A stretch of DNA of 64,000 nt from Promethearchaeota archaeon (GCA_048938105.1 JBHLMN010000004.1:64001-128000); one strand, 5' to 3'. Numbered from the stretch's first letter, positions 47,553-64,000 are shown. Program-made: numbers and translations. Notes: generated by a model from the letters alone, not told the origin.

Positions 47553-48830
47553 TTATTTCATTAATTGTTCAGCTATATCATCCTTAGCTTCAGCTATCTC
47601 TTTTTGGATCTCTAGATTAGTATTTCTTTCATTTGTCATTTGTTTGGTTTTTTCATCAATCCTTTTAATGATATTTAAATCAAATTGATTGAGCCTAGTC
47701 TTCTCTTTAGTTGAATGATTCAGATTAGAGAAGTCACCTTTAACACTATCCCCACGCTCTGCTGTTTTGATTTCATTTATTCGCTCCTGGTCCACACTAG
47801 CAAGTCTATCAGCTGTGACTAAATTAGATGTTTCTAAGGGATTTTCACCTAAAAATACTTCAAGTTGGCGTTCATTATACTTTCTTAATTGATGGATTTC
47901 CTCTGGGGAAAGATCAGGTATCTGTGGATCATATGAGGAGTCTGGTAGTAAATCTTCCATGATTTTCGACTCGTCCATTACATTGTGTCTTTTTTTAGAT
48001 TCAGTTTCCGTCCTTGGAGAAGATGGAATTGTATTTTGGGAATTATTGTTTTGATTAATTTTTAGATGAGGAATGACATCCCTATTCTCAACCTTCTTAG
48101 AGGTGTAAGTTGGGGGTTGTGGAAATGTGTTATTTGAGGGAGAAGGAGGAGGGGATTGAGAAGATCTATCGAGAAAAGCACCATGATAATCATGGGTTCC
48201 GTTCTCTTCTCGTTGGAGATCAGAGGATAATAATGGAGTAAAAACCAATCCAGGAATGATTTTCTCAATCGCATTTTGAAAGTCCAAGCTACGTTCACGA
48301 ATATTAAAATGAAAGTCTTTTAGTTGATTCAGTGAGGATAATAACTGAGTATAATTACACTCAGGGTAATCTAATGTAAGATTTAAGATAGTATTACCAG
48401 AATCTTCAATGATTCGGAATTGATGTCCTTGAAGATTTTTCAAGACGGAAAGACGGAAGTCTTGAGGTTTCCTATCAACCTGAAAATTTATCAACACGGT
48501 TGTTAGGTTCTCTTTTTGGGAGTATAAGATAATAGCTTCTGGAATATCATCCAATTGAAAACGATCTTGGGTTGTTGGGAGATTGGTAAAATGAAAGGTC
48601 TCCAACTGGTGCTTAATATCTACATTATCCAAAATAAGGCCGAGAAAATATCCAACAGACCCCAGTACTAATACCATGAGAACACTTGCATCCGTAACAT
48701 AATAAAACAGGCATCCACAGAGAAAACCGATAATTGCGGTTAGCACACTGCGCTCTAACATTAATATTTCATCCATTATATGATATTTTGTTCCAGAGTA
48801 TTTATACTCAAAATCAGAGCTACTGGTCAT
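47553..48830 (-). CDS. Membrane-anchored protein: 2 N-terminal TMs, globular domain, disordered Pro/Ser-rich and coiled C-terminus
   Basis: Hydropathy judged by eye. The start may be ATG 48776, 30 nt after the promoter-motif TATA. Confidence 0.75.
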   Translation of the reverse strand: MTSSSDFEYKYSGTKYHIMDEILMLERSVLTAIIGFLCGCLFYYVTDASVLMVLVLGSVGYFLGLILDNVDIKHQLETFHFTNLPTTQDRFQLDDIPEAIILYSQKENLTTVLINFQVDRKPQDFRLSVLKNLQGHQFRIIEDSGNTILNLTLDYPECNYTQLLSSLNQLKDFHFNIRERSLDFQNAIEKIIPGLVFTPLLSSDLQREENGTHDYHGAFLDRSSQSPPPSPSNNTFPQPPTYTSKKVENRDVIPHLKINQNNNSQNTIPSSPRTETESKKRHNVMDESKIMEDLLPDSSYDPQIPDLSPEEIHQLRKYNERQLEVFLGENPLETSNLVTADRLASVDQERINEIKTAERGDSVKGDFSNLNHSTKEKTRLNQFDLNIIKRIDEKTKQMTNERNTNLEIQKEIAEAKDDIAEQLMK

Positions 48831-48838
48831 AGTGGCTA

Positions 48839-51628
48839 CTAGTGGAGAGTTTGAGCGAACTGATTGTAATCATCGCCTAAAGGGATCTCCATTCCTTCAA
48901 GAATGTACATGAGAAGAGACCGTGCTCCAAATTTATCCAATTTGGTGTTATTATGACTACAGCGAGGTAGAAATGTGCATTTCGGACATCCTTGAGGATC
49001 TTTACATTCACAAGCCAAAATATCATAAGCTCTGGTGAATAGCTCGGAGAGATGATCCAAAAGCATAGCACAGACTCCTGAACCATTAGCTTGGTCAAAC
49101 AGTAAAACATAGCCTTGGGGAATTAAGGCTAATCCTCCAATTTCACTGAGCTGCCCCCCAATAAAGGGCAGACTAGCGTGGAGAAGGACATGAACCAAGG
49201 TATGCAACGCAGCTCTAAAAGTACTATGATCAGAACCTATAATATCTGTAAAAAGAGTTGGAACCTGAAAAAGGAGGCCTTTGGAATGGGAGGAATAATA
49301 GAGAGGATCACGAAGTCTATTCATGGAAGTACCATTCGGAGACTCTAAAACATAGCCAAAAACCGTCTGAAGGACCTTTGTTTCAACTGATACGACTTCT
49401 AGTCCAAAGACATGATGATGAGTATGGAGGGTCAAGATCTCTGGTTTTAGCGAGGAGAGAGGATAAGTATTTCCCCACACACTCTTTGGCTTGATAAGCT
49501 CTGCTACCCCTCGTATTCCGTTAAAATAAAAACTAATCACTTGATATCGTGTGCCCCCAGAATAATAAAACGCCCCAGGATATAGTTCTAACATAGCAAT
49601 AGGCATCACACGTTTTCCGATTTTTCTTCCCCCACGTATTTTTATCACCACCTCGTGGTTCCTCCCTCGAATCGAATATCTCCGTGCTTGTTCTTGTCCT
49701 TCTTGCGTTGGCAGGAGAATGGATTCATCTACCTGATTCAGAAGATTTTCTGCTACTAATCTACTAAGGATGGGAGCATATTCAGGAAACTCACTCACAT
49801 CAATGGGATGATCGAGGGAGGCACATAGTAACTGGTTTTCTGTGACGTTAGGATTGTCGGGGTCAAAAAATACTTCTTCTATGTCTTGATAATACCGCTT
49901 GGGGTATCGATAATAGTAGTTAGAAATTGGATCTTCGCTATTTAGATGAATGATTGCTACTGCTTCTTGGCCCTTCCGACCTGCCCTTCCGATTCTTTGC
50001 ATAGCACGATTTACTGCAATAGGAGGCGTAATAACAATGTCTAAATCTCCAATATCGATTCCCAATTCAAATGTGGGTGTAGCTACCAATAAATCGATTA
50101 TACTGTCTTTGAAATCAGTTTCAACCTGTTCTCGGATTTTCTTGTCTAGTCCTGCCCGATGGATACCAACTCTTTTTGCAGTCCCTCCCAGCTTCTGATA
50201 TAAGATTTCGGCATTGCGATGCGAGTCTTGAAATACCAACGTCTTACCATGATATTTGATGCTGTTGACAAGACTTGTTACACTATCCAAAGTCGACATT
50301 CCTTCAAAGGGAGCTACCATTAAGAAGTGTAAACGGCCCCGTCGTCCATTCTGACATTCGATTACTGTGATAGGCCGATCGAGCAATTTTGAGGCAAACG
50401 ATTGCGCATTGGCAACTGTAGCTGAGGCTCCAATAAATTGTAGTTTTGTTTGTATTATTCGTTCTAAACGGCGCAATATGAAGTACATGTTTGAGCCAAA
50501 AGTTCCAGTATACGAATGGATTTCATCTAAAATGACGATTTTAAGGCCTGCGAGTAAATCCTGGAAATAACTGCTATTTTTCCCGATTCCTAAGTGATAA
50601 TGCAAAATATCAGGGTTAGTAATCAAAATTTCAGGGGGATCAGCATAGATTTTTTTCCGCCAATAGTGGCTAGTGTCTCCATCAAAGACTCACACTGACA
50701 AGCCTAGAAGGGATGCGAAATCCTCAATTTTCCGAAGTTGATCTTTAGCCAAGGCTTTCATCGGATAGATCAAAAGTAATTGTACTCCACAGTCCTTATA
50801 CTCACGAATCTTGAGTAGTGTTGGAAGAAGGAACGCCTCGGTCTTACCATTCCCTGTGGGGGCAACAATGCACACATCTTGATCCTTTTGAATCATGGTT
50901 ATCGCTTCTTCTTGAAATTGGAAAAAGTGAGTGATTTCCCGTTTCTTTAACGCTTTAACAAGATTAGGGTCGTTTAAAATGTCAATTCTCTTTCCTATCT
51001 CCCCAGGTTGGTTTTCAAACAGACGATAATCAACTATTTGATGCTGTGCAAATTGGATTATTTTTTGGATAGGTGTTGGGAGATCCTTAATGGGAATGTC
51101 AAACCGATTATGGAATTCAGTCAGTGTGATGACACTTTTCGGAGCCTTACTTTGGATAGTCAGTCCATCCTGAAGACCTAGCTCCTGATGAGATGGCAAT
51201 TTTTTCAATTTTCCTGAACTCGCAAGGCGAAGTTCTGTTGCCTTTTGTAGGCAAGCATTTCCCCCCGTCAGGGAATAATATTTTTGTAAACAGAACTCTC
51301 CTTTCCGAACGTCTCTCTGCTTAAAATAGAGTGAAGATAACTGCTTCCATGTTTCCCTATGCGTGTTATTTAATTGTAATATTCGGCCAAACGCCTTCTT
51401 GGCATCACTAATTTGTTTGAATTTCTGAAAGTGATTAGCGATTTCCGTGAGTAACTCAACAGACGGGGTGGGATTCTCTGAAGCTACAATGGCTCTAAAC
51501 TCTGCTAAGATGTCTTCAAGATCACGAAATTCCTGATAATCCTCTATAGCGGAACGATAGCGTGTCCACAAGTTTTTTTTGTTGTCCCCATGAATAGTCA
51601 TGATTTCATCAATGATGATTATTAACAT
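48839..51628 (-). pseudogene. TPR + Hrq1/YprA-type DEAH helicase with DUF1998 Zn domain, interrupted by one in-frame TGA (50690-50692)
   Basis: APTGNGKT, then LGLSV*VFDGDT..ILITNPD in the same frame, then DEIH, SAT, HRAG, ELGIDIG, QRIGRAGR and CEC...GCPKC....RC. Confidence 0.85.
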
Positions 51629-63002: not shown

Positions 63003-63056
63003 AGCTCACCAGTAATTAAGAGTGTAAGTATCGTAGAATGGTAGAGGTTATCAACA

Positions 63057-64000
63057 ATGAGTCAAATCTCAAGAATAAATCAAGAAAAAATAATTGGCTT
63101 TTGGCTTTTAACAAGTATTTATCTTGTTATCATTCTGATTGCTATTACTCCTGGCATAGCCACACCATTAAAGACATCAACAACCCTTCTCTCTGATATT
63201 GGGGCTGCAGGACTTGATGACACGATTCAATTCACAATTTTTGTTTATACAGGTTTTGACCCTGTCCCAACTGGTGTTGTTCGTATAATTGATACCAATA
63301 CAAGTGAATACATTGATACCACTATTCTAGGTGGGGAAGCAAAAGTTAATTGGACAGTTTTTGAGCCTTTCATAGAAGGGGTTCATGTCTTTAAGGCCAA
63401 CTATCAAGGATTTTTAGATTACTCCCCTTCATCTGGCATATGCAGTATTTATTTTGATGAATTTACTCCTGGGAGTTCTCGTACAACGACTATCACGCTC
63501 AATAGTAATTCTACTGTAGTTTTTAAGAACTCATCTGTCCGATTCACCGTTGAACTCGAAATTATTAATTCTGTTCAACCCTACTTCAAGGGGGGATATA
63601 TTTATGTTAAGAACAATAATCTTAGCGGATCGCCTATGATCCATACTTATGGACCACTCCCTCTAGACCCTTCTGCTCTCTTAACCTACTCCTTCGATTA
63701 TCAGATCCCTATCTTTTCCCCAGTAGGGATCAATGCGTTTTTTGTGGAATATACTGGAAGTTCGCAATCCCAAACAAAACCTTGCACTTCCTCTCATCAC
63801 AATATAACAGTTCTAAGTACAGGTTTCTGGTTAGATCAATCAATAGATCAAGTTGACCTTCAACGCGAAGAGAGTACATTAGAACTAAACACAACAATAC
63901 TGGGAGATAATCCCATAGGATTAGAATTAAAGATGTACTCTTCCCTCAATGACCAAAAATTCATCATAGATGATCGTATTCTCGAATCACGGAATGTAAT
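63057..64000 (+). CDS. Large secreted Ig-like (Big_3-type) repeat protein, 3'-truncated by the window edge
   Basis: Translated by hand: MSQISRINQEKIIGFWLL... signal/TM, then PVPTG.V...G.H.FKANYQG...YSPS Ig-type units; GAGG SD. Confidence 0.8.
   Translation, partial: MSQISRINQEKIIGFWLLTSIYLVIILIAITPGIATPLKTSTTLLSDIGAAGLDDTIQFTIFVYTGFDPVPTGVVRIIDTNTSEYIDTTILGGEAKVNWTVFEPFIEGVHVFKANYQGFLDYSPSSGICSIYFDEFTPGSSRTTTITLNSNSTVVFKNSSVRFTVELEIINSVQPYFKGGYIYVKNNNLSGSPMIHTYGPLPLDPSALLTYSFDYQIPIFSPVGINAFFVEYTGSSQSQTKPCTSSHHNITVLSTGFWLDQSIDQVDLQREESTLELNTTILGDNPIGLELKMYSSLNDQKFIIDDRILESRNV

Follow-up and report, generated by a model that had tools for sequence, protein, structure and literature searches.

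Near the right end of a 64,000-nucleotide stretch of a Promethearchaeota archaeon genome (GCA_048938105.1, JBHLMN010000004.1:64001-128000; hereafter the window) lies a cluster of genes for two DNA helicases, a RadA paralog, a nuclease-fold protein, degenerate relatives of HerA/VirB4 and Hef, and membrane and surface proteins. It occupies 47.5-64 kb of the window and continues on the contig to ~70 kb (genes are numbered as in Table 1). The reading somewhat favored here is that these genes form a vertically inherited DNA-processing cluster with pseudo-enzymes, linked to an envelope operon, with co-regulated units and a role in recombinational repair. The original prediction, made from the window alone, had described them as a co-regulated island for DNA processing or transfer. 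An open reading frame (ORF) map and family searches confirm the gene content that it listed (RadA, XPD-like, TPR-Hrq1/YprA, Hef-like, MmcB-like, HerA/VirB4-like, membrane, longin-V4R, and immunoglobulin-like (Ig) proteins), with the correction that two ORFs called as RadA, and two called as the TPR helicase, each constitute one gene interrupted by a stop codon. The orphan proteins have no match in Pfam, NCBIfam, PADLOC, or PHROGs, and a literature search found no description of the cluster. RadA duplications in Asgard archaea are already known (PMC12722695), and the cluster is absent from that description.

The window corresponds to contig C27:64001-128000 of a 65-contig, 5.85-Mb genome (G000) with a guanine-plus-cytosine (GC) content of 0.35, completeness of 99%, and contamination of 7%. 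Its close relatives carry the names Candidatus Hodarchaeota or Heimdallarchaeota archaeon, and one ortholog derives from Candidatus Hodarchaeum mangrovi. The contig past the window was read as a separate segment (L001; window coordinate = L001 coordinate + 62000). Class-level counts refer to 82 Heimdallarchaeia genomes in families f1-f7 and genus-level counts to 19-20 genomes, and synteny was compared among relatives over 40 kb around orthologs. The nearest relative (G007) and the closed genome of the genus (G009) recur in these comparisons.

Comparative sequence data indicate that the cluster is vertically inherited, old, and lineage-specific, that it is most elaborate in this Hodarchaeales genus, and that it is not a mobile island. 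The units helicase-g01, g08, g09-g10, XPD(-g04)-RadA, and Ig-g14-g15 are syntenic in G001, G004, G006, G009, G010, G011, and G018 and in JAUUVJ010000007 (L038), where every gene is full-length at 30-82% identity. In the seven numbered genomes of this list the Ig-g14-g15 operon is divergent from RadA, as in the window. The XPD paralog is found in 16 of 19 genus genomes (60-88% identity) and, at 38-40%, in the sister family; g04 is intact in 19 of 20 genus genomes, and g08 occurs in 18 of 20. Nine genus genomes have g04, alone or with g05, g06, and g07, located between XPD and RadA, and in both sister-family genomes it adjoins XPD; the g04-XPD arrangement is probably ancestral.

That the cluster is instead a decaying acquired island or the remnant of a mobile element is highly improbable. 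Such an origin would fit the base composition, the segment from 47.5 to 72 kb being the highest-GC 24-kb window of the genome (0.387 versus a mean of 0.351 ± 0.013; top of 2428), in line with the higher GC that the original prediction had noted. It would also fit the nonsense codons in two genes and the mobility of the g04-g07 block, which stands next to the TPR helicase in G000 and G007 and 600 kb away in G009, beside an Arf-like GTPase. Yet no integrase was found in the flanks, no tRNA and no flanking direct or inverted repeat >16 nt around the cluster, and no PHROG family or Rfam match in searches of the cluster; the marks of an integrated element (integrase or transposase, att site or tRNA, patchy distribution) are absent. 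Moreover, intact orthologs keep their synteny throughout genus and order, the RadA tree recovers the genus and order groupings, and strong selection extends to the present, including downstream of a stop. The original prediction had named two findings as fatal to it, the lack of a conserved neighborhood in relatives and the presence of flanking att, integrase, or viral genes. Neither applies, because the neighborhood is conserved and no such genes were found; what does not survive is the notion of an island of acquired DNA.

Two members of the cluster are dead enzymes kept under strong selection beside active paralogs, a design typical of eukaryotic repair complexes. The first, g04, belongs to a family of 52 clusters of "hypothetical protein" and has no match in Pfam, NCBIfam, PADLOC, PHROGs, or PDB sequence profiles. 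Its AlphaFold model (12 orthologs; pLDDT 67.7) is matched by Foldseek to HerA (8zit, 8wod, 4d2i) and TrwK/VirB4 at E values of 1e-8 to 1e-6 (best 1.6e-8), and more than 100 PDB matches at E <= 1e-3 and probability 1.0, with TM-scores of only 0.25-0.42, place it in the HerA-type fold. Where active relatives carry Walker A (GxxGxGK[ST]) and Walker B (hhhhDE) motifs, g04 has GSTNTEV and LTHAAEF, with no conserved Lys or Asp-Glu in the 12 orthologs. Because the ATPase motifs are lost, g04 is predicted to be unable to power DNA translocation. Residues 609-668 follow a helix-helix-helix-hairpin pattern in the model, consistent with a winged helix. The ratio of nonsynonymous to synonymous substitution (dN/dS) against the nearest relative is 0.071 for g04, on which ground the dead proteins can be regarded as functional in the evolutionary sense.

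The second dead enzyme, g10, derives from the helicase part of Hef. It aligns with residues 11-486 of the canonical Hef encoded elsewhere in the same genome (C52:258917-261130) with an hhalign probability of 99.4% over 435 columns at 26% identity, inserted domain included. The LPTGLGKT segment of Hef aligns with YSTEDTLI, and IDEVHR with VNQAEM, so that both Walker A and DExH are lost. No ERCC4 or HhH (HhH2) match is found, and the C-terminal ~150 residues are variable and do not align to Hef. The Hef helicase region and its inserted domain are therefore what g10 retains. Directly upstream in every syntenic genome is g09, a small protein with four invariant Cys.

The remaining DNA enzymes of the cluster preserve recognizable active-site motifs. 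The RadA paralog combines an HHH_5 domain (1.3e-12) with a RecA core bearing Walker A (GENGCGKT) and the Walker B region LIIVDS. It is the fifth RadA-family gene of a genome in which the other four are intact, and G009 has the same number. In a maximum-likelihood tree the cluster copy forms its own clade (100/100), sister to the copy in the order's second family (100/98) and separate from three genus-specific canonical-like copies and a class-wide paralog. The canonical-like copies (G000:C11:34013, C52:28072, and C41:166313) are closely related and each has an ortholog in G009, a genus-level triplication; the class-wide paralog lies at C11:140539.

Behind RadA, and presumably co-transcribed with it, is an XPD/Rad3-family iron-sulfur helicase that probably starts at ATG 61752. 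Nine aligned orthologs share invariant G42/G44/K45/T46 (GxGKT), D217/E218/H220 (DEGH), and C106/C120/C125/C169, and on these motifs the protein is catalytically intact. It scores 114.7 bits against the rad3 subfamily, below the cut-off of 246.95, and is for this reason regarded as a divergent paralog. The second helicase has the DEAD, Helicase_C, winged-helix, and MZB (DUF1998) zinc-domain architecture of the YprA/MrfA/Hrq1 type (PF00270, PF00271, PF22982 as a weak match, and PF09369 at 1.4e-8), and TIGR03817 matches residues 2-576 of its C-terminal ORF at 3.8e-59. Orthologs of this MrfA-like helicase are 919-935 residues long. As the original prediction had supposed, several of these genes are additional copies: besides the four other RadA genes and canonical Hef, G000 holds two other XPD-family genes and another YprA-like helicase. 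The last (27% identity over 737 residues) is found with Ig-repeat proteins on a 50-kb contig of GC 0.37 (L080, G000:C15:30001-49867).

The predicted nuclease-fold protein, g08, is matched by Foldseek best to 3dnx (SPO1766; E 5.9e-6, TM-scores 0.56/0.64), presumably the structure of the MmcB-like family, and then to SfsA, AF1548, NucS, Can2, and Hjc. Residues D48, E63, and E65 are invariant, and the usual Lys position of the PD-(D/E)XK motif is Gln or Thr. The family comprises 88 clusters of "hypothetical protein," all from Heimdallarchaeia, with no Pfam sequence match and nothing found with PDB sequence profiles. It is single-copy in 60 of the 82 genomes (f1-f4 and f6) and was not found in f5 or f7.

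The RadA and MrfA-like helicase genes are interrupted in G000 only, their orthologs being intact. For RadA, ORFs 62279-62818 and 61796-62206 share one frame and are split by a single TAG, flanked by Rad51 profile positions 4-81 and 121-243; for the helicase, ORFs 50690-51628 and 48839-50626 share a frame with a single TGA between them. In both genes the Pfam profile runs on across the stop. Orthologs have Glu or Gln (GAA, GAG, CAA) at the TAG position and Arg or Lys (AGA or AAA) at the TGA position, with AGA in the nearest relative, and each stop is one base change from an ortholog codon. Against the nearest relative, dN/dS of the helicase is 0.079 overall and 0.073 downstream of the stop. Because such low values persist, also after the helicase stop, the two stops would be either very recent lesions or strain variants; the pathway is probably crippled in G000, unless the stops are strain variants. 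Stop-codon recoding was rejected, given that the two stops differ, that orthologs have ordinary residues, and that no PylS was found in the genome; it is further disfavored by three other same-frame ORF pairs in the window, which are neighboring genes. For annotation, the split radA and helicase calls in this metagenome-assembled genome should be read as single genes, each with a fresh nonsense codon.

Evidence for co-regulation comes from the 15-nt motif GATTTYKARTATAAA, the shared promoter element of the original prediction. Four of its seven exact copies in the genome are packed into 14 kb of the cluster, 24-76 nt ahead of the start codons of g01, g07, radA, and the Ig gene. The element is rare, and in G000 most transcription units of the cluster have it. 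With up to 2 mismatches allowed, the window contains 12 copies, versus 5.0 ± 2.0 in shuffles, among them degenerate copies that precede g04 and g08. Sites before RadA, g01, g04, g05, and g08 recur in relatives. The g01 site is exact in G007 and has 1 mismatch in G009 and 2 in G010; a 1-mismatch copy occupies the g04 position in G007, where the g05 site is also kept; and the radA site is retained in G009 and G011 (exact to GATTYYKARTATAAA) and in G018.

The association with envelope genes extends beyond the order. In f6, an intact Hef lies next to a g08-XPD operon. An f4 genome (G032) carries an XPD-like gene followed on the same strand, after only 50 nt, by the gene for a 1704-residue Ig-repeat protein, and then three small or membrane proteins, a RadB/KaiC-like ATPase, canonical Hef, a 1034-residue protein, and g08. 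The 1034-residue protein is unrelated to g04 by hhalign (probability 5%). In an f3 genome (G027), 32 kb hold a RadA paralog, a 2121-residue Ig/A2M-like protein, a KaiC-like ATPase, g08, a DEAD helicase, a 2646-residue TSP3-repeat protein, and an XPD-like gene; in eight f3/f4 genomes XPD-like and g08 genes are 12-19 kb apart on one contig. These f3, f4, and f6 versions indicate that the linkage of envelope giants with DNA enzymes is class-wide and old. On gene content, four other Heimdallarchaeia families keep a reduced set in linkage (XPD-like, g08, Hef, RecA-family ATPase, giant Ig protein), and the Hodarchaeales version appears as one in which canonical Hef has been replaced by its dead paralog. 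As conserved gene linkage, the pairing of surface operon and DNA enzymes is real, and it recurs in other Heimdallarchaeia families.

The original prediction had seen in this combination a DNA-exchange machine, in which surface contact is followed by HerA/VirB4-like import and then by recombination. In Sulfolobales, Ups pili, Ced import, and repair genes belong to one damage regulon marked by the Orc1-2 promoter motif ANTTTC (PMC6061795, PMC11823120), and the Ced and Ted systems are relatives of conjugation machinery that includes a VirB4-like ATPase (PMC9905601). The linkage of Ig and membrane proteins with XPD, RadA-family, and nuclease genes across five families, together with the back-to-back promoters of radA and the Ig gene carrying a shared motif, would suit such a machine. 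It is nevertheless unlikely: g04 could not serve as the motor, all 12 orthologs lacking the Lys of Walker A and the acidic residues of Walker B; nothing resembling a CedA channel, a pilin, VirB6/VirB2, or ComEC was recognized, with g01, g06, g14, and g15 matching no known channel family; and in several genomes, G009 among them, g04 and g06 lie 600 kb from the rest. The analogy to Ced accordingly fails at its central component, with no pilus or other transfer component recognized to take its place. The function we infer is recombinational repair, possibly tied to an envelope response. DNA transfer draws no support from the components found, and inducibility and cell contact are purely conjectural.

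Several observations weigh against a repair cluster with co-regulated units. The exact motif is multi-copy only in G000 and its nearest relative, and in G009 and G011 only the RadA site is exact; because of this the regulon may be young or loose, and its tight signature a feature of the species group. Envelope and repair genes could be neighbors through conserved gene order, with no function in common. The substitution of the third PD-(D/E)XK position leaves nuclease activity of g08 uncertain, and two nonsense codons in one cluster of one genome show that the cell can do without it, for a short time at least. Finally, the helicases resemble defense helicases (BrxHI/DruE/DrmA models; type IV DinG at 1.6e-55), and a defense-like AAA_15/DUF3696 ATPase is encoded 6-7 kb to the left.

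The first two of these observations could be accommodated if the genes had no common function, repair genes and envelope operon standing side by side by inherited order and the motif being a local promoter duplication. The envelope proteins of f3 and f4, only weakly Ig-similar to those of Hodarchaeales, would be in keeping with this. Such a coincidence is quite improbable, however, considering that the linkage of giant Ig, XPD, g08, and RecA-family genes survives rearrangements in five families and that the XPD and Ig genes of f4 are so closely spaced.

Because of the helicase resemblance, defense against viruses or plasmids stays a rival, albeit a doubtful one. It would draw on DinG/XPD-like and DUF1998/MZB helicases, a nuclease of the PD-(D/E)XK type, and a scaffold resembling HerA. 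PADLOC models for BrxHI, SngC, DruE, and DrmA match the MZB helicase (3e-36 and weaker), and typeIV_DinG covers the XPD paralog full-length; the best fold matches of g04 are HerA proteins that partner with nucleases in solved defense complexes; an AAA_15/AAA_21/DUF3696 ATPase is nearby; and costly accessory systems typically show nonsense codons and rearrangements. Defense systems are usually patchy, however, whereas nearly every genome of the genus has this cluster, in single copy and for the most part in synteny, and in other families it is linked to canonical Hef. Purifying selection (dN/dS ~0.07) also speaks against defense, as do the orphan proteins without PADLOC match and the confinement of the PADLOC matches to generic helicase cores, and we know of no defense component that is a full-length RadA with an HhH domain.

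In the favored repair reading, the units would be induced jointly, with DNA damage or some other stress as the likeliest trigger. MrfA and MmcB act in repair of mitomycin-C damage, XPD in excision repair, Hef at stalled forks, and RadA in strand exchange, family roles that point to repair of bulky or crosslink damage or of stalled forks, with strand exchange as the next step. Damaged or stalled DNA (bulky adducts, crosslinks, forks) would be unwound by the two helicases and cleaved by the nuclease, and the dead copies of HerA and Hef would serve as scaffolds or as adaptors that bind DNA; the winged helix of g04 could even regulate the motif. The RadA paralog would build or assist the strand-exchange filament, and the envelope proteins may alter the cell surface at the same time. 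Heimdallarchaeia are the closest archaeal relatives of eukaryotes, and a bolder proposal, which must be considered a long shot, is that an ancient stress-induced Heimdallarchaeia program ties a surface apparatus for cell contact to dedicated recombination machinery of paralogs and dead-enzyme adaptors, a forerunner of eukaryote-style repair complexes (XPF/FANCM-like, Rad51 paralogs, FANCJ-like) and perhaps also of genetic exchange between cells. Should the cluster work as a single functional unit, it would represent an undescribed repair and recombination pathway in the archaeal lineage nearest eukaryotes, and its linkage to giant surface proteins offers a testable starting point for asking whether recombination in Asgard archaea is coupled to responses of the envelope or to cell contact.

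Table 1. Features of the cluster (window coordinates; those beyond 64000 lie on the same contig)
Feature	Position	Strand	Description
g01	47553-48776	-	membrane-anchored; 2 N-terminal transmembrane segments (predicted), long low-complexity/coiled tail
Motif before g01	48801-48815	-	exact copy GATTTTGAGTATAAA, 24 nt upstream of 48776
MrfA-like helicase	48839-51628	-	TPR + superfamily 2 helicase, YprA/MrfA/Hrq1 type; DEAD, Helicase_C, WHD_HRQ1, MZB; 929 codons; in-frame TGA 50690-50692
g04	51716-54319	-	HerA/VirB4-fold protein (fold match), 867 aa; winged helix-turn-helix + helical C-terminal part
Motif before g04	54366-54380	-	AATCTTGAATATAAA, 2 mismatches, 46 nt ahead
Micro-ORF	54574-54708	-	~45 aa, between g05 and g04; tblastx paralogs
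g05	54721-55518	-	longin-like + V4R-like protein; ESM Atlas leads only
g06	55590-56477	-	multi-pass membrane protein, 5-6 transmembrane segments, Asgard-specific
g07	56461-56739	-	92-aa ORF; heads g07-g06-g05-g04 unit
Motif before g07	56772-56786	-	exact copy, 32 nt upstream
g08	56977-57495	-	PD-(D/E)XK-fold MmcB-like protein, 172 aa; AF2 pLDDT 91.7
g09	57637-57903	+	small protein; invariant C27, C30, C40, C62 (6-ortholog alignment)
g10	57912-59837	+	Hef helicase-part paralog, 641 aa; NF010337 1.6e-23
XPD paralog	60010-61752	-	XPD/Rad3-family FeS helicase; DEAD_2 1.3e-9, Helicase_C_2 1.6e-18
RadA paralog	61796-62818	-	HHH_5 + Rad51 core, 340 codons; in-frame TAG 62279-62281
RadA/Ig promoter region	62895-63000		divergent; four motif copies in two back-to-back pairs: 62895-909(-), 62922-936(+), 62959-973(-), 62986-63000(+)
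Ig-repeat surface protein	63057-67871 (window part to 64000)	+	1604 aa; signal/transmembrane 10-28, C-terminal transmembrane 1575-1593
g14	67875-68468	+	YdjM-like membrane protein, after Ig protein
g15	68465-69550	+	after g14

The smaller proteins of the cluster are less readily assigned. g01 always follows the MrfA-like helicase and adjoins it in 8 genomes. Its orthologs (33-69% identity) align from about residue 21, and its start is probably ATG 48776 rather than 48830; dN/dS is 0.31. In g06 (dN/dS 0.072), whose genus orthologs are 36-86% identical and usually stand beside the Ig operon, an M50-like zincin reading is reduced to a weak lead with a score of only 0.80. The displaced g04-g06 pair of G009 is divergent from a 388-residue orphan and the Arf-like small GTPase (L020, G009:C1:1720294-1740293, 11263-13024 (+)). 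In ESM Atlas, g05 resembles a V4R cluster (TM-score 0.57) and a Fuz_longin_1 cluster (0.81, matched row); it has an ortholog in G007 (81%) and a paralog on C56 (39%). That paralog (L079, G000:C56:13001-18000, 2564-3379(-)) lies directly upstream of a 465-residue protein (1000-2397(-)) whose C terminus matches the ERCC4 nuclease region of Hef, a second pairing of a longin-V4R type protein with a Hef-derived part. The match of g07 is limited to 35 residues in G007, and because it is so poorly conserved its coding status is uncertain. Members of the micro-ORF family (~45 residues) are found by tblastx at window 41567-41701 (53% identity) and at G000 C18:132060-132194 (60%).

Farther out, a MarR/TrmB-like gene at 46906-47469 was considered as cluster regulator and rejected, as it is not conserved beside the cluster in relatives. 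The word CCAAATTTTCCAAA occurs before it (window 47513-47526) and again at 70002-70015, before an ABC transporter operon at 70095; it may be the operator of this regulator, or the coincidence may be due to chance. The AAA_15/AAA_21/DUF3696 ATPase to the left (569 residues) is followed by a 346-residue protein of no family (window 38774-41524 (+)), a pair of defense type in look. Two genes of chemotaxis type in this Asgard genome, one CheD-like and one CheC-like, are arranged head to tail in a single frame at window 1538-2806 (-).

Among known systems, the archaeal mre11-rad50-herA-nurA operon offers one parallel, a HerA-fold protein with a nuclease and helicases, here with a RadA gene, and a predicted role in preparing DNA for strand exchange. 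The cluster differs in that its HerA-like protein has a winged-helix tail and no ATPase motifs, its nuclease has the PD-(D/E)XK rather than the NurA fold, and Mre11 and Rad50 are absent, whereas XPD, an MrfA-like helicase, dead Hef, and an envelope operon are added. By analogy, the closest functional precedent is the Sulfolobales damage regulon, which likewise links surface and DNA-processing genes through a short shared promoter element and includes a protein of the HerA/VirB4 clade. In contrast to that regulon, the present cluster has another motif and belongs to another lineage, its HerA/VirB4-like protein is dead, and it has neither pilins nor a CedA-like channel; the active VirB4/HerA-like ATPase, CedA-type channel, and small pilin-like partners that define Ced and Ted are not found in it. 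The TPR helicase shares the DEAD, Helicase_C, winged-helix, and MZB architecture of bacterial MrfA (YprA), from which it differs by an added N-terminal TPR region and by the absence of an MrfB exonuclease. Unlike MmcB, g08 is not matched in sequence by the Pfam family of MmcB and lacks the motif Lys, and to our knowledge MrfA and MmcB are not known to act together in bacteria. Compared with Hef, XPF, and FANCM, g10 has lost the ERCC4 nuclease and HhH domains, has a variable, unrelated C terminus, and is paired with a four-Cys mini-protein; as a dead-motif Hef paralog under selection, it nonetheless recalls XPF, whose helicase domain is dead, and FANCM, whose nuclease is.

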